DNA from: Cyclobacteriaceae bacterium
GTDB lineage: Bacteria; Bacteroidota; Bacteroidia; Cytophagales; Cyclobacteriaceae
DNA length: 64,000 nucleotides
Assembly: GCA_019638285.1 (NCBI GenBank)
Contig: JAHBUB010000006.1
Location: forward strand, 44,219 to 108,218
Reading direction: 5' to 3'
In this document: positions 31,484 to 48,724 of the stretch, one piece after another
Numbering within the stretch: the first letter of the stretch is position 1
How the letters are laid out: each line of letters begins with the position of its first letter
Program-made: the position numbers and the translations under genes
Notes under the pieces: model-generated
The model's input: only the letters and a program-made list of their open reading frames with translations
Told to the model about the DNA's origin: nothing
Database searches by the model: none

Positions 31484-34069
31484 CTAATGCTCTTGCTGAC
31501 CTCTTTGAGAAGTACCTATATGCGACCCAAAAAACAAAGCGTTAAAGAAAAGTTTATTGCCACCATACCAGTAACCACGGAATGTAGGGTCATCTACAAA
31601 AAGAATAGCCCTTCCCCTTCCTACACTACTCACTTCTACTGAAACAGAGTTCTTTATTTTTTCAAGATTGCTAGCATGTACATACCCGCTCAGAAGTGGG
31701 TTGGCTGTGTATTTCGCCACAGTGCTGAATGGATTGTTGCTTGGCTCAAGGAAAATGGTGTGGTTCCTGTACATCGGCAGGTTTCTGCTCGTGTAACCAA
31801 ACCCCAGCGGATGGGTAATATCGAGATCGGTCACATAGATGGAGCCGCCAATTTGTTTTGCCCCAAAATAATCCTGAGCAGTTACATAATCCATTCTTTT
31901 TATAGTCTTTTCCTTTTCTTCTTTGTCTTTAGTGAGTTGCTCATTGATCAGCTTATTGTTTATTGCCCAATTCACAGCATAGCGTTGAAGGATAAGTGTG
32001 CCACCATCTTGCATCCATGATTTCAATCGTTCTACACCTTTTTCTCCCAGCATACTGTAATTACCGGAAACGATTATTATGGTGTTGTAGTCTGATAACT
32101 TCAATCTATCAAACTGATAAGTATCTACTTTGGTAATAGGCATTCCCACCTTGGTATCAAGCATATGCCAGATGGCCCCGGCCTCTGTCGATGAGGAACC
32201 CTCGCCAATCAACATTGCTACTTTTGGCAATTCAACGGTCTGCACATTCCCACTTCCCAGGTAAACACCTTCCGAAGTTATTCCGGTGTCCACAGTATAA
32301 ATATCGAGACCACTTATCTTGGATGCCTCTTTGATATAAGTGTATACTTCCTCTTGTGAAAGATTCTGATCGGCTACTGAAACAACAAGAGTACCGTATC
32401 CAAAATTCTTTTTCACCCCATTCACTACAGCAACAAATGGTTTAAATGCAGCCTTCACAAATACTTTGTTTTCAAGCAGATGATATAATGCTTTGGGCGC
32501 ATAGTATTCATTCCACTCAATAAGATAAGCATAGTCAGATTTTGCTACAGGGGCTGGTTTGGCTACAATGTCTTCAGCTTTTACCTTCTCCCCTTTTGTA
32601 TATTTTACCGAGGCAGAAAGTGCATCATTTGGCAATCCATATCCAAGTGACATGGTCCAAGCGGAGGCATCATAAAAAACGCTGTCATAGAATTTTGTCA
32701 CCTTCTCAAACATTGACCGCACCATACGGTATTGACGCTGATCGGTAGGTACCACAAAGGCCTTTCCTTTTTCATATCGATTGGCCCCTACAGTAAGATC
32801 GCTCGATAATGGATAGGTATCAATCCGATGTTTCAACAGCAAATCAACAAATGCATTTGTTCTGCCCTTGTCCTGGCTGTCGCCAAATACATAAGCCTTA
32901 ATAGAAGATTTTTTCCCTTCTTCTAATGCGGACTTAAAGAAATCCTGCTGGTGCTTTAATAGCAGCTCACGATTCTCTACAGATGCCAATACAGTGGCAA
33001 GACTGGTGCGTACGTGATTACGAATGGTAAAAGGGAAGGTAACTATCTTTGTAGAACTTTGCTGCACGTGTCCTCGTGAGCTGGCCTGTTCAAATACCAA
33101 CCCAAGTCCTCCATGGATATCTGGATAGGTAGAACCGTACCCTGGATAAGAGTTATCAAACACCTCTTTTGCCCAATACAAAGATCCGATGTCGTCCAAA
33201 GCCTTCACAAAATATTTTTCAAACAGAGGATTTAATTTGTCATAGTTGTCGCGTGGTACTACAGGATTTTCAGATCCATAGGGCTTCGTAGGCTCAAAAA
33301 AGTTAGTACCATTGGTACCCATCTCGTGATAATCGGTGCACACATTGGGTAGCCACTTATGAAAAAACTCCATCCGGTTTTGGCTTTCCACGTGGACAAG
33401 CGGCAACCAATCTCTGTTCAAATCAAACCAATAGTGATTAGTCCGGCCTCGGGGCCATTCCTCATTATGTTCACGGTCCATTGGATCCGCCACTGGAGGA
33501 AATCCCTTGTACATGTTGGCCCAAGTGGTATGGCGATCGCGGCCATCCGGATTATAATTGGGGTCAATATGAATAACGCTTTCGCTTAATGTTTTGTTGG
33601 CCTCCTCACCCTGGCGGGCCACCATATAATAGGCAGTTAGCATAGCTGCCTCACTGCTGGAGGGCTCATTGCCGTGTACATTGTATCCCAGTGTGACAAT
33701 CACAGGCATGTCTGCAATAGATACCGATTGTGAAGGGTCTGCCAATTTTGCATGTTCCTTTTGAATAGCATCAATTTTAGTATAGTTCTCTGGACTAGTG
33801 ATGGTGAGTACTACCTGAGGCCTTCTTTCATAGGTATACCCTATAATTTGAAAATGAGCCTTTGGCGAAACCCTTGCTAACTCCTCAAAATAGGATACGA
33901 TCCGATCGTGACGGGTATGCCAATCTCCCACCGGGTAACCGAGAAACTGCTCGGGAGTAGGAATGGCCGGATCAAACGAAGTGCCAGAAGGAAAGAAATA
34001 ATTATTTTGTCCATTGCTTTCGATTTGAATCAAAAGTGACAGTAAGAATACCAACAAAAGATTTTTCAT
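31484..34069 (-). CDS. M14 family zinc carboxypeptidase (secreted)
   Basis: NVHGNEPSSSE (HxxE), NPDGRDR, GRTNHYWFDLNRDW, DYHEMG. Confidence 0.92.
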   Translation of the reverse strand: MKNLLLVFLLSLLIQIESNGQNNYFFPSGTSFDPAIPTPEQFLGYPVGDWHTRHDRIVSYFEELARVSPKAHFQIIGYTYERRPQVVLTITSPENYTKIDAIQKEHAKLADPSQSVSIADMPVIVTLGYNVHGNEPSSSEAAMLTAYYMVARQGEEANKTLSESVIHIDPNYNPDGRDRHTTWANMYKGFPPVADPMDREHNEEWPRGRTNHYWFDLNRDWLPLVHVESQNRMEFFHKWLPNVCTDYHEMGTNGTNFFEPTKPYGSENPVVPRDNYDKLNPLFEKYFVKALDDIGSLYWAKEVFDNSYPGYGSTYPDIHGGLGLVFEQASSRGHVQQSSTKIVTFPFTIRNHVRTSLATVLASVENRELLLKHQQDFFKSALEEGKKSSIKAYVFGDSQDKGRTNAFVDLLLKHRIDTYPLSSDLTVGANRYEKGKAFVVPTDQRQYRMVRSMFEKVTKFYDSVFYDASAWTMSLGYGLPNDALSASVKYTKGEKVKAEDIVAKPAPVAKSDYAYLIEWNEYYAPKALYHLLENKVFVKAAFKPFVAVVNGVKKNFGYGTLVVSVADQNLSQEEVYTYIKEASKISGLDIYTVDTGITSEGVYLGSGNVQTVELPKVAMLIGEGSSSTEAGAIWHMLDTKVGMPITKVDTYQFDRLKLSDYNTIIIVSGNYSMLGEKGVERLKSWMQDGGTLILQRYAVNWAINNKLINEQLTKDKEEKEKTIKRMDYVTAQDYFGAKQIGGSIYVTDLDITHPLGFGYTSRNLPMYRNHTIFLEPSNNPFSTVAKYTANPLLSGYVHASNLEKIKNSVSVEVSSVGRGRAILFVDDPTFRGYWYGGNKLFFNALFFGSHIGTSQRGQQEH

Positions 34070-34164: not shown

Positions 34165-37100
34165 CTAAAACCCATCGTCTTCCGCATCCTTTTTCTTGGC
34201 AGGACCCTTTCCTCCCAAACTGTATGGGGCTTCAATGCCGTAATACTTGCTTCTGAATTTGTTGATGAAACTTAGGGTTTCTTCATCACTGCCTGGGATA
34301 AACACCAGTTCCCCTATTTTGGCTTTGGCCGCATTGGTCTTTTTTGCGATCACGCTATTGAAGTCCGGATTGGATGAATGGATCATTAACCGGTTATCCT
34401 CCAGGCCAAAGTAATACCACGAATCAGGAGATGCCTTAAAAAAAACATGGAACACAGCGCCACCGTCTTCATTTTTTCGCAGCTCCATAAATCCTTCAAA
34501 CGACCCATTGATATCATTGCGCAATATATTACTCAGGCCAAGATTTCCTTCGCTGTAAAACGCTTTATATTCCTGCGATCGCTTGAGGTCAAAATTAGAA
34601 AACACCAATGGTCGAGCTAATTCGGGGATGCTAGCGAGTGGCGTATACGCTTGCAGTGATTTTGCCTCAAAATCTTTTGTTGCCCGCTCCCCTACAATGT
34701 CAGCAATTTTGTACAACAGCTCAGTCTGATCCCCTAATCCTTCATCACCACCCTCGTTCTTAATTACATTCTGCAAATCGAGCGCCATCAATTGCAAAGC
34801 CTGGGGAGGCACATTCATATCCACCATCAGAAAGGTATTCATCCGAATGTCGTTGGTCTCCAGATTCCCTGATCCCAGTGCACTTGCTGTAGTATTAAAA
34901 TCCTTACTGCCGCCATTAAAGAAATTAACTTTACCCTCGAATCTTACCTCTTGTTTGTCTTCGTTATAGGCAAATACTTTCCCTGTAAGTTTTTCGCCCG
35001 TGGCCTTCTGCCGATCTTCAATTCTAAACTCCTGACTTTCCTTATCAAAAAATAAGGAGCCGCTCGGCAAGAAAAAATCATCATCATCTGGGTTTTTTTT
35101 ATCGAACACAAAAGTGATGTAAAGGCTATTGTCTTCCGAAAAGTGCAACCCCGCCTCTACTTTTCTGCCTTCTTCTGTAATCGCATTGTCAAAATCTAAA
35201 AACACCTCTTTCTCGTCACCGCTTTGCTCATATACAATCCACGTGTTATAATTTTTAATCTTTTTAAGATCAAGCTTCACGCTCCCCTTTAACTGAAGGG
35301 CTGGCCTTGTGGCGTACATTACCATATCTCCTTTATAGTAAATTCGTGGAGCAAGAATAATTTTGTCTTCTTCCGATACCGCCCCATTGGCAACCGTTTG
35401 TTCAGTAGCCACTAGCCCCAATTGTTTTTTTCTTCCCTTGGCTACATCTTCAATAGGCTCCAAATGGAAATCTGTCATTTTAATCGCAAAGGTGTCATTC
35501 ACTGCATTTACATATTGATAGGTAGCAGAACCTGAAAATTCCTTTCTGGAAATAATGTCTACAATTCCTGCGGTAAGCCGGTGATAACCGTTGAGGGTGT
35601 CCATTACAATCGTTGTGTTGGTCAGTCTCCCAATTTTCGCATTCTCCAAAATCAATATTTCATTATTCTCTGGCGTAATTTTGGCATCAGCTACCACAAT
35701 AAATGGTATTCCACTTACTTTCAGTTGCTGGGTTTGTATATCATATTCAGCCCGATCTGCCAGGAAATTAAGTGAATCTAATTCCTTCCGGGTAGTGTAG
35801 AAGTAGGAGTTCTCCAGCGGCACATCGGGATCTTTATTCATTACAATCTTTTGTGTGTTCAAATCCCATCGCGCTTCTGGAATGGAGGTCTTGAACTGCG
35901 CATACGGAAACTCCAAAGCTGCCTCACCTGCTATCTCCGGACTAATGTCAGCATAGTTCTCTTGAAGATTAAACTTCAACCTTACATCGTCTCCCGATAG
36001 GGCAGGCTTATCCGGGTTGGTAGTCTTCACTTGAAAATCAGCATGCCTCGCACCAAAATCCTTTGCGGAAAAGGAAAGCTCTTGAGAAATAGCTTCTGAT
36101 CCGCGTGTAATTAATTTGCCTCCACCCGTGGTTCCCATTTTTGACACGGTAAGACTCCCATCCAACTGGGCACTTGCATCGTATAAATTAAAAGGATCGC
36201 GTAAATTCTTAATAGTGAATTTGTCTTGCTTGGGCAACCATTTCAGCTTGAATTCTGTAAGAGAGACTTGAGGAAACCAAACAGCGCCAAACTGTTTCTC
36301 TTTCAGCTCTCCGACATTTCCGCGCCCTACCACAGAGTCTGGATAAAAAACAAAATCTTTAGATTCTACACTGGCCGACAAATAGTCAATACGACCTGTG
36401 GCACGAATACCAGCATTGTCAAGGTTCATTGCCCCCACTATTTTTCCATCTCCCTGAAATAGTTGATAGCCCCCACTAGGAATAGTATGTGTAAACCCAA
36501 GCGATTTATCTGCCATGGTATGCAGCTTCTCCTTGAAATTGGGAAACATACCACTGGACACAAACGTGCCTTCAAAATTAATAGACCCCGGATCCGCATC
36601 GTTCAGGCTGTCTAGTTTGAAGGGTGGAACCACAAAAAATACAGAGCGATCATAGGCCCCATTCAGCACCTCTCTTCGGTTGAAGTAAATCACGCCCCCT
36701 GCGGTGGCATCAAGGCGAGGATAATTCGGGCTTTTTTCCTTTCCCGATTTATTATCCGGGCGACTGATAAAAAGGGTGCCTGATGATTTGGATGCGTTGG
36801 ACATTCCTGCTGCCGCTGCCGCTGTTGAATCGGCTCCCACCATGGCATTATTTACACGCCTTCTAATACTTTGCCCGCGCGCGTTGGTTTCAGTAACATA
36901 AAAGCGTATTGAGTCAATGTGATTTAGATTGATGAAAAAACTGTCGTATTTAAGTGTGAAGTCTTTTCCGTTGATCTCAAAATTTCCTGCCGTTATCTTA
37001 CCATCAAATTTTATATCACGATCGTGCAAAAGTGTGATTACGCTACTGTCCGGTTTGATCACGACATTAAGTGAATCACTGACATTAAATTCTTCCACCC

Positions 37101-38949
37101 CTCTCACATTCATATGCCCCTTAGTGAAATTAATTGTGGCATTAGCAGGACCATCTACGATAGAATGAATCTTCAGATTATCATAGTCTGCATCACCTTT
37201 TCCTGCATCATAATAATGCAATGCTTTCTCATTCACTTTTATGTATCCGGTACTGGCATTGTACTCTATCATTCCTTTTTGAGCAAGAAAGGCCATCGCC
37301 ATACGCATTCCGTCTGATCGCTGACCAGTGGCAATAGCTATGTCATCTACGTAAAACTCTCTTACTCCCATCTTTAGTGAATAGCTCGCTACCAATGCAA
37401 GCGGATGAAATTGAAATCCATATCCCGCCAACAATCTAAAGTCCTCTGGATCATAATAGTCGACAGATTCTATTACCATGGGTGATTGGCTCCTTCCTCC
37501 GTAGCTATAAATATTTAAGCTGTCTGAATTTAAATCCCATCGAATTTTATCTGCATTAAAATCCATATTAAAATAAGAAGCAGAGTAGGGAGCATTTTTT
37601 AAATATCCATTTTCCTTTTGTAACACCAACTCATTTTTACCAAAGTTGTAATAGAACTGCGTGGCCGGGTGATAGATCGAATCGTTTTGCTGAAATATTC
37701 TCACCATTGCTCGTTTGGAGAAAATAGTAGAGTCCTGAAATTCAAAAAGGCGAGATCGAGCCTCAAATTTTCGGTCCACTTCTCCCATTACCACCAGCTT
37801 TGCCGGATCACCATTTACCGATGAACTGTATATCCTTCTGCCGTTGAGCGCAAATCCCCCGGTATATCTTAGCTTTTCATTTCCAAGTCCTAACATTTCA
37901 ATGTTACTATTGAATGACATGAATCGTGGATAAGTAGCCGACTCAGGAGTTTTGTGATAAACACTTTTAAATTCAAATATTCCATCAATCCTTCCAGGTG
38001 CTTTTCCCAGATAGGTAAGTTTTCCCTGATCTGCTTTCAGCTCAGGTTTTGTTACATTGAAATTAAAAGCTGTAAAGTCGAAATAAACAGAATCTTTACT
38101 CAAACCCGTAGTACTCCAATCAAACCTTCCTCCTTCACCTACGAATGTATTGTTCAAAAGAGAAACTGCACCCTTTGTGTTGGTCAAGAAAGCTGAGTCG
38201 TATGAGGTTGAAAAATTGAGCGTCACCTTATCAAATCGAATGAGTGGCCCTGTTAGCTCTGGTTGTGGAGCCGGCTGCATCCAAATCGGCATGGCGGGAG
38301 GCAATACAGTATCAACAGGATCGTCCCAATTAAAATCTTCTTGTGCATCTTGATTGTCCCATTGATTAAACTCATTTTGATTGTCCTTATTCTCGTTCAA
38401 ATCATTGGTGGAATCATTCGCATCCACATTGTCGGATAAGGAATGAAATGTTTCAACCTTCACATAATCAAAATGATATTCATCGTTTCTTACCCACAAC
38501 CTGTATGATCGATCATAGTGAAGTGTATGGTATTCAAAAAACTGTCTTACGTTTCTAAAAAAAACACCGGCATGGGTAAGGCTTTCATTTTCTATTACCT
38601 GTCCAGCTACATTTAAGAAATCAGAGAGGGTCTTAACGCTCGCCTTTTCACGATCGATTGCGTTTAAGATAGCGCCATAGTAGTTGACAAACTGAGGGCG
38701 TAGTTTGTAGCCCTTTCCTTTCATTTGTTTGGCCTGTTGCCTGATTAACGCCTGCTGATCTGGTCCCAGCTTGCTCCATGCCAATACAAATCCTGCTCCC
38801 ACCGCTCCTGCATCTGCATTTCGCGAGTTTTCAAGCGCCACACGTACACTGTCCTGAAAACTAAGTGTAACAGGGTCACCAGCATTTTGCGCTTTTAGAG
38901 AGGCAGATGCTGCAAGTGCAATCCATATGTATATTAAAACCCGCTTCAA
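34165..38949 (-). CDS. Large (1594 aa) secreted beta-rich hypothetical protein
   Basis: Uninterrupted ORF with signal LKA|Q, a helical N-domain, an Asn/Asp-rich linker and repeated beta-hairpin motifs. Confidence 0.85.
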   Translation of the reverse strand: MKRVLIYIWIALAASASLKAQNAGDPVTLSFQDSVRVALENSRNADAGAVGAGFVLAWSKLGPDQQALIRQQAKQMKGKGYKLRPQFVNYYGAILNAIDREKASVKTLSDFLNVAGQVIENESLTHAGVFFRNVRQFFEYHTLHYDRSYRLWVRNDEYHFDYVKVETFHSLSDNVDANDSTNDLNENKDNQNEFNQWDNQDAQEDFNWDDPVDTVLPPAMPIWMQPAPQPELTGPLIRFDKVTLNFSTSYDSAFLTNTKGAVSLLNNTFVGEGGRFDWSTTGLSKDSVYFDFTAFNFNVTKPELKADQGKLTYLGKAPGRIDGIFEFKSVYHKTPESATYPRFMSFNSNIEMLGLGNEKLRYTGGFALNGRRIYSSSVNGDPAKLVVMGEVDRKFEARSRLFEFQDSTIFSKRAMVRIFQQNDSIYHPATQFYYNFGKNELVLQKENGYLKNAPYSASYFNMDFNADKIRWDLNSDSLNIYSYGGRSQSPMVIESVDYYDPEDFRLLAGYGFQFHPLALVASYSLKMGVREFYVDDIAIATGQRSDGMRMAMAFLAQKGMIEYNASTGYIKVNEKALHYYDAGKGDADYDNLKIHSIVDGPANATINFTKGHMNVRGVEEFNVSDSLNVVIKPDSSVITLLHDRDIKFDGKITAGNFEINGKDFTLKYDSFFINLNHIDSIRFYVTETNARGQSIRRRVNNAMVGADSTAAAAAGMSNASKSSGTLFISRPDNKSGKEKSPNYPRLDATAGGVIYFNRREVLNGAYDRSVFFVVPPFKLDSLNDADPGSINFEGTFVSSGMFPNFKEKLHTMADKSLGFTHTIPSGGYQLFQGDGKIVGAMNLDNAGIRATGRIDYLSASVESKDFVFYPDSVVGRGNVGELKEKQFGAVWFPQVSLTEFKLKWLPKQDKFTIKNLRDPFNLYDASAQLDGSLTVSKMGTTGGGKLITRGSEAISQELSFSAKDFGARHADFQVKTTNPDKPALSGDDVRLKFNLQENYADISPEIAGEAALEFPYAQFKTSIPEARWDLNTQKIVMNKDPDVPLENSYFYTTRKELDSLNFLADRAEYDIQTQQLKVSGIPFIVVADAKITPENNEILILENAKIGRLTNTTIVMDTLNGYHRLTAGIVDIISRKEFSGSATYQYVNAVNDTFAIKMTDFHLEPIEDVAKGRKKQLGLVATEQTVANGAVSEEDKIILAPRIYYKGDMVMYATRPALQLKGSVKLDLKKIKNYNTWIVYEQSGDEKEVFLDFDNAITEEGRKVEAGLHFSEDNSLYITFVFDKKNPDDDDFFLPSGSLFFDKESQEFRIEDRQKATGEKLTGKVFAYNEDKQEVRFEGKVNFFNGGSKDFNTTASALGSGNLETNDIRMNTFLMVDMNVPPQALQLMALDLQNVIKNEGGDEGLGDQTELLYKIADIVGERATKDFEAKSLQAYTPLASIPELARPLVFSNFDLKRSQEYKAFYSEGNLGLSNILRNDINGSFEGFMELRKNEDGGAVFHVFFKASPDSWYYFGLEDNRLMIHSSNPDFNSVIAKKTNAAKAKIGELVFIPGSDEETLSFINKFRSKYYGIEAPYSLGGKGPAKKKDAEDDGF

Positions 38950-39052: not shown

Positions 39053-39886
39053 TTATTTTTTTAATTGAAAAAGTAAGGAAGCCCAATTTTCGCGCACCTC
39101 ACTTTGGATATATTTAAGCGGATATGGATGAGCCCTTGTTACCATATCGGGAATGTCCTTTTCGTAGAAACCGCTTAATAAAATATATCCATCAGGGTTT
39201 AAATAAGACACATACTGCGGCAACTCCTGAAGCAATATGTTTTTATTAATGTTGGCCAGAATGATATCATAGTTGTTTTCAAATATCAACTCACTGATCA
39301 TGCCCTGCCTGATATTTATATTTTTGCAAGCATTCACTTCAATGTTTTCCTTTCCATTGATTACGCTCCATTCATCAATATCAAATGCGTCTATAGTTTT
39401 TGCGCCAAGCTTTGACGCCATGATGGAAAGTATAGCAGTACCACACCCTGCGTCCATCACATTTTTATCCTTGTGATCCATGTCCATTTGTGCCTTTATC
39501 ATCAGGTAGGTGGTCTGATGATGTCCTGTGCCAAAAGACATTTTAGGTGTGATGGTAATAGAGTAAGGGTACTCTTTTTCTATCTGATGAAATTCAGCGC
39601 GTATCACGCATCGATCGTCTACGATAATCGGCTCATAGCTTTTTTCCCATTCTTCATTCCAGTTTCTTTTCTCAATTCGATCCCAGAAAAATAATAGCGG
39701 CTTTACCTGATCATATTTTTTTTTGATTTCTTCTACAAGGACTTGATCAAAGCGATCTACTTCTGCATAGGCTTCAAATCCATTTTCATTTTCCAAAAAT
39801 GAATCAAAGCCGGCTTGTGAGATTTCCGCAATCAGAATTTCTGAAAAAAGGGGATCACAGGTTACACTTAGGCGTGTGTGATACAT
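39053..39886 (-). CDS. prmA: Ribosomal protein L11 methyltransferase
   Basis: NWNEEWEK, PKMSFGTGHHQTT, DAGCGTAIL, ILANIN, LSGF. Confidence 0.96.
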   Translation of the reverse strand: MYHTRLSVTCDPLFSEILIAEISQAGFDSFLENENGFEAYAEVDRFDQVLVEEIKKKYDQVKPLLFFWDRIEKRNWNEEWEKSYEPIIVDDRCVIRAEFHQIEKEYPYSITITPKMSFGTGHHQTTYLMIKAQMDMDHKDKNVMDAGCGTAILSIMASKLGAKTIDAFDIDEWSVINGKENIEVNACKNINIRQGMISELIFENNYDIILANINKNILLQELPQYVSYLNPDGYILLSGFYEKDIPDMVTRAHPYPLKYIQSEVRENWASLLFQLKK

Positions 39887-39888
39887 GC

Positions 39889-40653
39889 TTAGGCTGACTT
39901 AATAATCTCTACAAAATCCCTCGACTTCAACGAAGCTCCTCCTACCAAGCCTCCATCCACATCGGCACAGGAGAAGATTTCCTTTGCATTGTCCGGCTTC
40001 ACACTACCTCCATAAAGAATGGGAACCATGTTGGCTGTTTCTTCGCCAAACTTGTCGACAAGATGCTTCCTGATAACCAGGTGCATTTCCTGAGCCTGAG
40101 CGGTAGTTGCTGTTTTGCCTGTGCCTATTGCCCATACGGGCTCATAGGCTATTACAATCTTCTTCATGGCTTCGGCATTCAGATGAAAGAGCCCCTCTTC
40201 AATTTGTTCCTTTACCAGCGTTTCGTGATCTCCGGCTTCCCTCACTTCCAGTGGTTCTCCACAACAAAAAATAGGCTTTAGCCCATTGGCCAGTGCGCCA
40301 TCTATTTTCTGGGCCAATTGTTTTCCGGACTCAAAGAAATATTGTCTGCGCTCACTATGCCCGATTATAACATAAGGAACTTCCATAGATTTCAACATGC
40401 CCGCTGAAACCTCACCAGTATAAGCTCCAGATGCATGTTCATTGCAATTTTGAGCTCCTATTTCAATTCTCGCAGACTTTCCAAGTTGAGATTGAAGTGC
40501 GTGCAAATAAGGATAGGGGGGGCATATAATGATTTTCACATCTCCCCTCACCTCATCTCCTACCATCCCCATGAGTTCTGCTGTAAGCGATTTCGCCTCC
40601 AGAAGCGTTGTATTCATTTTCCAATTTCCTGCTACTATCCTTTGACGCATCAT
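39889..40653 (-). CDS. tpiA: Triosephosphate isomerase
   Basis: AGNWKMN, GAYTGE, IGHSERR, AYEPVWAIGTG, YGGSV, GGLVGGASL. Confidence 0.98.
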   Translation of the reverse strand: MMRQRIVAGNWKMNTTLLEAKSLTAELMGMVGDEVRGDVKIIICPPYPYLHALQSQLGKSARIEIGAQNCNEHASGAYTGEVSAGMLKSMEVPYVIIGHSERRQYFFESGKQLAQKIDGALANGLKPIFCCGEPLEVREAGDHETLVKEQIEEGLFHLNAEAMKKIVIAYEPVWAIGTGKTATTAQAQEMHLVIRKHLVDKFGEETANMVPILYGGSVKPDNAKEIFSCADVDGGLVGGASLKSRDFVEIIKSA

Positions 40654-46495: not shown

Positions 46496-48724
46496 ATGCG
46501 TTCGTTCTCCTATCTCTTGATTCTGTTTATAAGCAGCTCATCCGCTTTTGCACAACAAAACTGGCAAGGCAAATTTGAGCAACTGGGCCCTGAGTTACCC
46601 ACCCCCAATAGCTATCGTAGCAGTTCCGGAGCACCCGGCCCGAACTATTGGCAACAGCGTGCGGATTATGAAATTGATGTAGAGCTGGATGACGAAACCC
46701 AAATGATTACCGGAAAGGAGATTGTCACTTATTTCAACAACTCTCCTGAAACATTGCACTATCTCTGGATGCAATTGGATCAAAATAAATTGGCTGCGGG
46801 CAACATGACCGACAAAACCAGTAATAATGTGATTCGGGATTCCGTACCTGCCAAATTTTTGGCAGAATCACTGGGTGGATATGGATATGACTATGATGGA
46901 GGTTATAAAATTAAATCAGTAAAAGATGCAACCACCGGTAAAGACCTTCCTCAAACTATCAATTTTACCATGATGCGTGTAGATTTACCCACACCATTAA
47001 AAACTGGAGATACGTATAAGTTTATAGTAGAATGGAGCTATCGCGAATACGACAGAATGAAATTTAGTGAGCGCGGTGGTTATGAGTATTTCCCTGAAGA
47101 TGACAACCGGCTGTATACTTGCGCACAATGGTTTCCCCGTATGTGCGTATTTGATGACTACGAAGGATGGCAAAACAAACAGTTTTTAGGTCGTGGAGAG
47201 TATGCCCTTACCTTTGGAAATTATAAAGTAAGAATTACCGTCCCCAGTGATTTTATAGTGGGGGCTACTGGTTGGCTGCAAAATCCACAGGAGGTATTGA
47301 ATAAAGATCAGTTGGAGAGATTCAACCGAGCGCAAAAAACATTTGATAAGCCCGTTTTTATCGTTACCGAAGCGGAGGCGAAAAAGAATGAGAAGTCCAG
47401 ATCAAAAAAGAAAAGCACCTGGGTGTTTCATTCAGAAAATGTACGTGATGTGGCTTTTGCTACTTCTCGTAAATTTATTTGGGATGCGATGGCTGTAAAA
47501 GTAAACAATAAAACTCCGCTGGCACAATCACTCTATCCGAAGGAAGGAAATCCACTCTGGGAAAAAGAATCTACCAAAGCGATCAAAAATACTTTAGAGG
47601 TGTACTCAGGCAGAACATTCGATTATCCCTATCCTACTGCTTACTCCATTCACACGGCAGATCAAGGAATGGAATATCCCATGATTTGCTTCAACTATGG
47701 CAGGCCCGATAAAGATGGAAAATATTCTCAAAGAGTATTGGAGGGAATGGTAAGTGTCATCGTCCATGAGGTGGGTCACAATTTCTTCCCAATGATCGTA
47801 AATTCAGATGAGAGGCAATGGACATGGATGGATGAGGGGTTGAACACATTTCTTGAACATGAAACATTGCGCACGCGTTACGATGGGTTTGACGTCACCA
47901 GCGGTACACCCAGAGGCATCGTTCCTTTTATGAAAGGAGATAAAAGTATCATGCGTCCTATCATGGGACAATCCGACAACCAAGGCACCAGCTTTGGGCC
48001 TAATGGGTACACAAAACCTTCTGCGGCCCTAGTGTTACTGCGCGAGACTGTTATGGGGCCTGAACTTTTTGACAGGGCTTTCAAAGAATATGCAGAACGC
48101 TGGGCTTTCAAACACCCGAAACCGGCAGACTTCTTCCGCAGTATGGAAGATGCTTCAGGCACTGACCTTGATTGGTTTTGGAGGGGATGGTTTTATAGTA
48201 CTGACAATGTAGACTTGACACTTGAAGATGTAAAGTGGTTCCAGATGAAGGAAGAGCAGCTGGATCCTGAGAAGAAAAACATAACAGTAAAACAAGGTGA
48301 CCTGTCGGCCAGCAGTGCCGCCAATAAAGCCAATGATTTTAGTGCAGGGCCTCAACCTTTAACAGTAGAAAACACTTCTGCTGATTCATACCGTGATTTT
48401 AGAAGTAGAATCAATGATGATGCAATTCGAAAAGATTTAAAAGGGAAAAACCTTTATGAAATTACCTTGAGAAATACTGGTGGCTTGATAAGTCCTGTTA
48501 TCATCGAATGGACTTATAAAGATGGTTCTAAAGAAATTGAGAAAATACCTGCTGAAATCTGGAGACTGAATGAAAAAGAAGTGACCAAGGTTTTCATCAA
48601 AGACAAGGAAGTAACCAATATCGTGATCGATCCAAATCACGAAACGGCTGACGTGAATGCTTCTGATAATGTGTTTCCAAAAAGAACAGAGTCTAAATTT
48701 GATCAGTTCAAAAAAGGAAATTAA
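46496..48724 (+). CDS. Secreted M1 family aminopeptidase, paralog 3
   Basis: Signal AFA|Q. GMEYP, HEVGHNFFP, WMDEG. ATG 46496 preferred. Confidence 0.93.
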   Translation: MRSFSYLLILFISSSSAFAQQNWQGKFEQLGPELPTPNSYRSSSGAPGPNYWQQRADYEIDVELDDETQMITGKEIVTYFNNSPETLHYLWMQLDQNKLAAGNMTDKTSNNVIRDSVPAKFLAESLGGYGYDYDGGYKIKSVKDATTGKDLPQTINFTMMRVDLPTPLKTGDTYKFIVEWSYREYDRMKFSERGGYEYFPEDDNRLYTCAQWFPRMCVFDDYEGWQNKQFLGRGEYALTFGNYKVRITVPSDFIVGATGWLQNPQEVLNKDQLERFNRAQKTFDKPVFIVTEAEAKKNEKSRSKKKSTWVFHSENVRDVAFATSRKFIWDAMAVKVNNKTPLAQSLYPKEGNPLWEKESTKAIKNTLEVYSGRTFDYPYPTAYSIHTADQGMEYPMICFNYGRPDKDGKYSQRVLEGMVSVIVHEVGHNFFPMIVNSDERQWTWMDEGLNTFLEHETLRTRYDGFDVTSGTPRGIVPFMKGDKSIMRPIMGQSDNQGTSFGPNGYTKPSAALVLLRETVMGPELFDRAFKEYAERWAFKHPKPADFFRSMEDASGTDLDWFWRGWFYSTDNVDLTLEDVKWFQMKEEQLDPEKKNITVKQGDLSASSAANKANDFSAGPQPLTVENTSADSYRDFRSRINDDAIRKDLKGKNLYEITLRNTGGLISPVIIEWTYKDGSKEIEKIPAEIWRLNEKEVTKVFIKDKEVTNIVIDPNHETADVNASDNVFPKRTESKFDQFKKGN

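Follow-up and report, generated by a model that had tools for sequence, protein, structure and literature searches.

Does gene X encode a protein that could carry hydrophobic cargo across the periplasm as a single chain? Gene X is the label used here for a gene on the minus strand (34165..38949) of a 64,000-nucleotide stretch of DNA, hereafter the window, from a Cyclobacteriaceae bacterium (GenBank assembly GCA_019638285.1, contig JAHBUB010000006.1, positions 44,219 to 108,218 of the forward strand). An earlier reading based on the letters and the open reading frames (ORFs) alone, hereafter the sequence-only reading, had described its 1594-residue product as a secreted protein built from LptA/OstA-like beta-hairpins and proposed it as a lipid bridge across the periplasm. 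Hydrophobic transport across this aqueous compartment in Gram-negative bacteria is under active study, and few architectures for it are known: the Lpt bridge, AsmA/TamB-like grooves, MCE tunnels, and Lol chaperones. The structure predictions presented here support, at the level of the fold, a single-chain, anchor-less, multi-module Lpt-type protein, from which we infer a lipid-bridge function that is plausible.

Predicted fold of the beta body

AlphaFold2 was run on two overlapping pieces of X, each with an alignment of 31 sequences spanning approximately 20–92% identity. The model of residues 1–722 has a predicted local distance difference test score (pLDDT) of 83.6 and a predicted template modeling score (pTM) of 0.73, and that of residues 700–1594 has a pLDDT of 86.9 and a pTM of 0.60. 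In these models, 85 strands cover 52% of residues 231–1380. Both half-models were compared with the PDB using Foldseek, and the 50 best matches were listed for each half. The best global matches of the C-terminal half are LptD chains (E 5e-5 to 1e-3), and its local matches include LptC (6mit_C, probability 0.98) and LptA (2r19_B, probability 0.97, template modeling (TM) score 0.62, 151 columns). The N-terminal half matches LptC (6mjp_C, probability 0.99, root-mean-square deviation (rmsd) 3.8 Å, 128 columns; 6mit_C, probability up to 0.99, rmsd 3.2 Å) and LptA (2r1a_A, TM score 0.60). Across both halves, the local matches to LptA and LptC have probabilities of 0.94–0.99 (0.98–0.99 for 6mit_C and 0.96–0.97 for 2r19_B) and target-normalised TM scores of 0.43–0.62. 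The two-sheet beta-jellyroll fold of approximately 16 antiparallel strands is found locally in both halves, with weak E-values. A propeller, solenoid, or barrel, any of which the sequence-only reading had regarded as incompatible with a bridge, gave no match of meaningful probability; those to propellers, TonB barrels, and YD shells are all of low probability. These comparisons support the presence of modules of the LptA/LptC beta-jellyroll fold in the predicted beta body of X.

The beta body also contains internal repeats. When the family profile was compared with itself, residues 777–915 matched 868–1004 with a probability of 92%, giving a tandem period of approximately 91 residues. Residues 541–683 matched 1012–1166 at approximately 60%, and 232–484 matched 854–1081 weakly. 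The internal repeats show that the beta body grew by the duplication of beta units. Judged from the two weaker self-matches (weak to approximately 60%), the N-terminal and central beta regions may be related by an older duplication. The 85 strands, with few linkers across residues 746–1380 of the model, are more in keeping with one unbroken sheet than with modules strung like beads. The near-unbroken run of approximately 54 strands in this region and the pTM values of 0.60–0.73 lend indirect support to a putative continuous hydrophobic groove.

Domain architecture and export

X is a single uninterrupted ORF of 1594 codons followed by a TAG stop. It begins with TTG, the earliest possible start downstream of an in-frame TAG, and the N-terminus read from this codon (MKRVL...) aligns with those of the homologues. 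The signal peptide (residues 1–21; 38887..38949, minus strand, as are all features of X below) is MKRVLIYIWIALAASASLKA, followed by QN; signal peptidase I (SPase I) is predicted to cleave between LKA and QN, and there is no lipobox. In Bacteroidota, SPase I cleavage usually leaves Gln at position +1. Of 142 family representatives, 123 begin with a hydrophobic run close to the N-terminus, and 125 of the 142 show [AGS]Q after such a run. There is no cysteine among the 1594 residues of X; therefore, it has no lipobox and cannot be a lipoprotein. The N-terminal transmembrane anchor that characterizes AsmA, TamB, and YhdP was not found in X, which has a cleavable signal with an Ala-Gln junction instead. 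The product is predicted to be a Sec-exported, SPase-I-processed, soluble periplasmic protein of approximately 175 kDa. Secretion by a cleavable signal, without a transmembrane anchor or lipobox, had been proposed before and is borne out by the Ala-Gln junction and the complete lack of cysteine.

The N-terminal domain (residues 26–165; 38455..38874) consists of six helices (31–140) and a long beta-hairpin (142–163). It is found throughout the family with weak conservation and has no Pfam match. It is followed by an acidic, Asn/Asp/Trp-rich disordered linker (residues 166–230; 38260..38454) with a pLDDT below 50, in which the acidic string spans residues 173–211 and the modeled disorder spans residues 168–218; only 38% of family members have residues at these positions. 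Beta block 1 (residues 231–500; 37450..38259) has 21 strands and carries a DSIYHP motif, whose D423 and S424 are 99% and 96% conserved, respectively. Between beta block 1 and beta block 2 (residues 591–705; 36835..37179; 10 strands) lies a winged-helix insert with a MarR-like fold (residues 501–590; 37180..37449). Foldseek aligned this insert with MarR, SarA, and AspA chains at probabilities of 0.99–1.00 over 75–93 columns, and weak matches to TFE, PadR, and SmtB were obtained at the sequence level. DNA binding by the winged helix is implausible given the periplasmic location. The helical N-domain, the acidic linker, and the helical insert in the middle of the protein had all been recognized from the letters, and all are visible in the AlphaFold2 model.

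An Ala/Ser-rich linker of low confidence (residues 705–722) leads into a strongly conserved motif at residues 724–736, GTL(F/Y)I-x-x-PDNKSG, and the conserved P744 (36715..36834 for the whole segment). Beta block 3 (residues 746–1380; 34810..36714) is a near-unbroken antiparallel meander of approximately 54 strands with the conserved motifs PPFxLDSL, GTFVSxGxFPxF, and GIPYIxVADAKI. Conservation in X is strongest at residues 724–1168. Block 3 also includes a second, reduced winged-helix-like element at residues ~1031–1078 (window ~35716–35859, minus strand), where 8 of 40 family members gave weak F-93_WHD matches. Because residues 541–683 match 1012–1166 in the self-comparison and this second element is present, the winged helix appears to have belonged to the duplicated unit. 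The C-terminal alpha/beta domain (residues 1381–1575; 34225..34809) is composed of three helices, a 7–8-stranded sheet, and two helices, and no relatives were found in Pfam, NCBIfam, or PDB-sequence searches. The idea that it is START/SRPBCC-like was dropped, as it came from one weak DUF2505 match (E 0.16) seen in only 2 of 40 family members.

The protein ends in a disordered Lys/Asp-rich tail (34168..34224; modeled disorder at residues 1580–1594) that terminates in -DDGF. The sequence-only reading had excluded both a barrel with a terminal Phe and a C-terminal sorting domain of the type IX secretion system (T9SS). Neither a barrel strand nor a Pfam or NCBIfam match to a T9SS domain was found at this charged C-terminus, but X does end in Phe (...AEDDGF). 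The ending -GF occurs in 56 of 142 family representatives (38 DGF, 8 EGF, and 5 GGF), after a disordered stretch rich in Lys, Glu, and Asp; among the 17 carrier genomes described below, it occurs only in the family of the window. A 246-residue predicted lipoprotein from the same genome (contig C1:206079–206819, plus strand, locus L147), which has an LLSAC lipobox and no Pfam match, has a Lys/Glu-rich tail ending in ...KKEEGDDGF. X and this lipoprotein are the only proteins with an acidic -DDGF ending among the 3503 ORFs of the genome. In one relative of this genome the homologous protein has the ending -DDDDGF, in another it has -NLGF, and a third relative lacks the ending. From these sequences, -DDGF looks like a lineage-specific C-terminal docking motif common to X and the lipoprotein.

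Sequence motifs and the Lpt and TamB proteins of the same genome

The genome that carries X also encodes a secreted 521-residue protein of the OstA_2/LptD_N/LptC type (contig C1, approximately 47500–48490, minus strand, loci L103–L107). It matches PF13100 with an E-value of 6e-43, PF03968 in several separate stretches, and LptC weakly, and its relatives are 520–590 residues long. In this organism it probably serves as the periplasmic component of the canonical Lpt bridge, and it shows that Lpt chains of several modules occur here. An LptD-sized ORF is encoded as well. A search of the genome with PF03968 at E ≤ 10 matched two other ORFs and not X. TamB (1524 residues, with an N-terminal anchor) is encoded on contig C59, separate from X. 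All 35 genomes tested have TamB, whether or not they carry X, and replacement of TamB by X was dismissed on this ground. Single and double TamB copies were found in 12 and 5 of the 17 X-bearing genomes and in 8 and 10 of the 18 X-lacking genomes, respectively, a weak difference that is not significant. Since canonical Lpt proteins and TamB coexist with X, X is considered an additional system and not a replacement. The parallel with AsmA/TamB proteins in the sequence-only reading is reduced to a functional analogy; TamB is encoded separately in the same genome.

The hairpin h-x-[YWF]-[DN]-x5-h-x-h, on which the proposed relation to Lpt proteins had been based, occurs in 12 copies after residue 220 of X. 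The shuffled expectation is 1.46 ± 1.2, and none of 2000 shuffles reached 12. X shows the highest enrichment of this motif among 2776 ORFs of its genome (Poisson 7e-9). The eight hairpins quoted earlier are located at residues 432, 469, 561, 991, 1026, 1067, 1299, and 1326. All are in place and the recurrence is real, but the one at residue 561, IEYNASTGYIKV, is the wing of the winged-helix insert and not part of a jellyroll. The further claim that this pattern typifies LptA, LptC, and the N-terminal part of LptD did not hold in this genome. The true OstA-type proteins fall outside the 25 most enriched ORFs, and the 521-residue OstA protein has 2–3 copies by eye. Therefore, the hairpin pattern as written is not diagnostic of Lpt proteins.

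Strand starts of the form D-[ST]-hydrophobic (D-[ST]-[AILVMT]) are also enriched in X, with 15 observed against 5.0 expected (P = 0.0005), and the 521-residue OstA protein has 11. Seven to eight D-[ST] sites are conserved across the X family, among residues 251, 406, 423, 679, 780, 871, 1058, and 1117, and one site in X, ADRAEYDIQTQQLKV, matches the full OstA-type motif. The same tripeptide is the general O-glycosylation sequon of Bacteroidota. These sites may thus mean that X is densely glycosylated; alternatively, they may have a structural role alone, as they do in OstA proteins.

Family and phylogenetic distribution

Searches with the whole of X matched no Pfam or NCBIfam model at E ≤ 1 and no PDB sequence. 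Profiles of the two halves and, separately, of the N-domain, the winged-helix insert, and the C-domain likewise gave nothing significant in these three collections. A word-indexed search returned 777 relatives, every one of which is labeled 'hypothetical'. With a profile of residues 700–1594, an exhaustive HMMER search found at least 2003 representatives of clusters made at 50% identity; of these, 1155 are below 1e-30. Among the best 150 of the 2003, the full-length members are approximately 1460–2140 residues long and match end to end. X occurs once in its own genome. It is a member of a large, single-copy, unannotated Bacteroidota family with one fixed architecture. We found no description of this family in the literature. 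In spite of its size and strong purifying selection, the family is unnamed and is represented by no model in Pfam or NCBIfam.

The distribution of X was examined in an even set of 301 Bacteroidota species, in which protein and profile queries agreed. X is carried by 17 species spread over seven families. It was not found in the two most heavily sampled families of the set, which we presume from the sample size to be Flavobacteriaceae and Bacteroidaceae. It is also missing from one genus within the family of the window (three genomes, 100% complete), and these X-less genomes lend themselves to a comparison aimed at the role of X. Named records place the clade of the window in Cyclobacteriaceae, Ohtaekwangia, and Chryseolinea-type Cytophagales. 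More distant branches are found in metagenome-assembled genomes (MAGs) of Chitinophagales and in Flavobacteriales and Cryomorphaceae MAGs.

The identities of X and of PrmA (ribosomal protein L11 methyltransferase) in the same genomes are 59/62, 48/56, 38/42, 28/39, and 23/34%, and X has no internal stops. The identity of X tracks that of PrmA, indicating vertical inheritance. Judged from these sequence identities, X is under purifying selection that nearly equals the constraint on a housekeeping enzyme, with X diverging slightly faster than PrmA.

Genomic neighborhood

As the sequence-only reading had noted, X is embedded among core genes. The genes prmA (39053..39886, minus strand, 103 nt upstream of X) and tpiA (triosephosphate isomerase; 39889..40653, minus strand) are both upstream neighbors. 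prmA is directly upstream of X in 11 of the 17 carrier genomes, which represent five families including that of the window, and it is the one neighbor of X with deep conservation. In a survey of 24 loci, prmA adjoins X in 16 and the order tpiA-prmA-X is kept in 11, and in two Chitinophagales genomes the prmA and X ORFs overlap. Downstream of X the gene content differs among the 24 loci; peptidases of the M14, M20, and M48 families and a hydantoinase are among the genes seen there. In the window, X is followed after 95 nt by the start of a secreted M14-like carboxypeptidase homologue (861 residues; 31484–34069, minus strand like X), with no obvious terminator in between. This M14-like family adjoins X in 3 of the 24 loci, once inverted and upstream. 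No lpt genes were found within approximately 8 kb of X in the 24 loci (6 kb for the seven closest loci); lpt genes are dispersed in many bacteria. The prmA-X synteny looks like an old housekeeping arrangement that is uninformative on function.

Proposed function and alternative explanations

We propose, with a probability of roughly 0.4, that X is an elongated periplasmic carrier or conduit for amphipathic cargo that docks via its non-beta modules. The modeled beta body would form an elongated two-layer structure. At 4.8 Å per strand, its 85 strands would extend over at most approximately 20 nm if every block joined one continuous stack, a length close to the width of the periplasm. By analogy with Lpt proteins, an amphipathic cargo, for example a lipid, glycolipid, or lipoprotein anchor, would have its acyl chains sheltered inside this body. 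Docking of the anchor-less chain to partners in the inner and outer membranes would fall to the N-domain, winged helix, C-domain, and tail, and X would act beside canonical Lpt and TamB, not in their place. More tentatively, the X family might constitute a third class of intermembrane conduit beside the oligomeric Lpt bridge and the anchored AsmA/TamB proteins. Such a conduit would be an anchor-less chain of approximately 20 nm made of fused Lpt-type jellyrolls, with its own docking modules and a lineage-specific cargo in Cytophagales, Chitinophagales, and Cryomorphaceae-like Flavobacteriales.

Several observations weigh against a conduit. The Foldseek E-values for LptA and LptC are weak (0.1–0.4), and only approximately 125–150 residues, or one module, superpose at once. 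The OstA, LptC, and LptD_N models (PF03968, PF13100, and PF06835) do not match X, for which Pfam is silent at E ≤ 1, and they are also unmatched in residues 231–500 and 1001–1168 of 40 diverse family members. An hhalign comparison of a 142-sequence X profile gave a probability of <1% with an alignment of the OstA-like proteins of this genome and approximately 1% with its LptD. The Lpt/OstA-like character claimed for X therefore stands at the level of the fold, with Lpt-type modules in both halves, but not as sequence membership in OstA, LptC, or LptD_N; X may be a very distant relative of the Lpt jellyroll or a convergent user of it. The conserved polar residues of X (D251, D423/S424, S495, D588/D590, N733/K734/S735, D814, D1088, and H1123) are not what a purely greasy conduit requires. 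No transporter, barrel, envelope, or lipid-metabolism gene is linked to X in the 24 loci, where only prmA and tpiA recur. Finally, the patchy distribution (17 of 301 species, with one genus of the same family lacking X) indicates that the function of X is dispensable or replaced in most Bacteroidota.

Some of these observations fit the main alternative, rated somewhat less likely than a conduit, in which X serves in the periplasm as a structural protein (a scaffold, a spacer, or a chaperone-like component) and moves no lipid. The Lpt-like sandwiches would then be rigid blocks, and the winged helix, terminal domains, and tail would bind envelope proteins or peptidoglycan. The several distinct non-beta modules, the conserved docking-type tail, the polar and not purely hydrophobic conservation, the absence of linked transporter genes, and the dispensability of X across most of the phylum are all in keeping with a scaffold. 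Nevertheless, the best-supported structural neighbors of X are lipid-binding jellyrolls and not structural repeats, and conservation peaks in the beta body (residues 746–1168) and not in the candidate docking domains. The same fold matches to LptA, LptC, and LptD would also suit a part of the canonical lipopolysaccharide (LPS) pathway, with X as the fused and diverged LptC/LptA bridge of these Bacteroidota. We regard this as quite improbable, because X has no sequence homology to Lpt proteins and the same genome has the bona fide 521-residue OstA_2/LptD_N/LptC-type protein and the LptD-sized ORF. Moreover, Bacteroidota, as Gram-negatives, are expected to make LPS, and X is absent from 284 of the 301 sampled species.

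The remaining explanations are considerably weaker. Bridge-like lipid transfer is a known role of AsmA/TamB/YhdP-type proteins (PMC10345924), and X resembles these repeating-beta-groove phospholipid transporters in its size (approximately 1500 residues) and all-beta body. Membership in this group is largely refuted and very unlikely: X has a cleavable signal in place of the N-terminal membrane anchor and no Pfam match to TamB (PF04357) or AsmA domains, hhalign against the TamB of the same genome gave approximately 0.1%, the 50 best Foldseek matches of each half include no TamB chain, and each of the 35 tested genomes has a normal TamB irrespective of X. According to PMC11885536, the route of surface lipoproteins is an open question in Bacteroidota, and an LptD homologue serves this purpose in spirochaetes. 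The Lpt-like modules of X could suggest a comparable periplasmic or outer-membrane route for surface lipoproteins tagged with the lipoprotein export signal (LES). This is equally remote. X was found in only 17 of 301 species, which speaks against an essential route used across the phylum, such as the export of surface lipoproteins. It is also missing from both of the most heavily sampled families, presumably Flavobacteriaceae and Bacteroidaceae, in which surface lipoprotein export is well documented. As an exported, large, and beta-rich protein of a phylum prone to gliding, X might also be a secreted or cell-surface adhesin or a T9SS cargo. We give this explanation almost no credence, since X lacks both a T9SS C-terminal domain in Pfam and NCBIfam searches and a lipobox, and its single copy, vertical housekeeping-like conservation, and fixed synteny are unlike those of fast-evolving adhesins.

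Should the Lpt-like modules of X form a conduit, they would show that a single chain without membrane anchors suffices for a jellyroll bridge, and they would hint at a cargo pathway so far overlooked in Bacteroidota that are abundant in the environment. Even with a purely structural role, X would rank among the largest conserved proteins of the envelope in these organisms, and it merits a family definition.

Comparison with known systems

In concept, the AsmA-like proteins, TamB, and YhdP resemble X: each is one very long beta-rich chain that could reach across the periplasm and keep lipid tails sheltered (PMC10345924). X differs from AsmA and TamB in that it has no membrane anchor, no DUF490/TamB or AsmA domain, and no match to them among the 50 best Foldseek matches of each half. 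The 521-residue OstA protein of the same genome is, like X, a single exported multi-module chain with the same motif features. In contrast to X, it is recognized by Pfam, is a third of the size, and lacks the helical and winged-helix additions, and hhalign between it and the X family gives a probability of <1%.

The Lpt proteins are the closest in fold, as the jellyroll of LptA, LptC, and the N-terminal part of LptD is matched by both halves of X. LptA is exported, soluble, and anchor-less, as X is predicted to be, and the aromatic-Asp/Asn hairpins and D-S/T-hydrophobic strand starts of OstA/Lpt jellyrolls are common to X. X has no lptB/F/G or lptD nearby in the 24 loci and occurs in a minority of Bacteroidota. 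While the Lpt bridge is assembled from oligomerising subunits of approximately 140 residues, X combines approximately 1150 beta residues in one chain and adds a helical N-domain, a winged-helix insert, a C-terminal alpha/beta domain, and a charged tail that are absent from Lpt jellyrolls.

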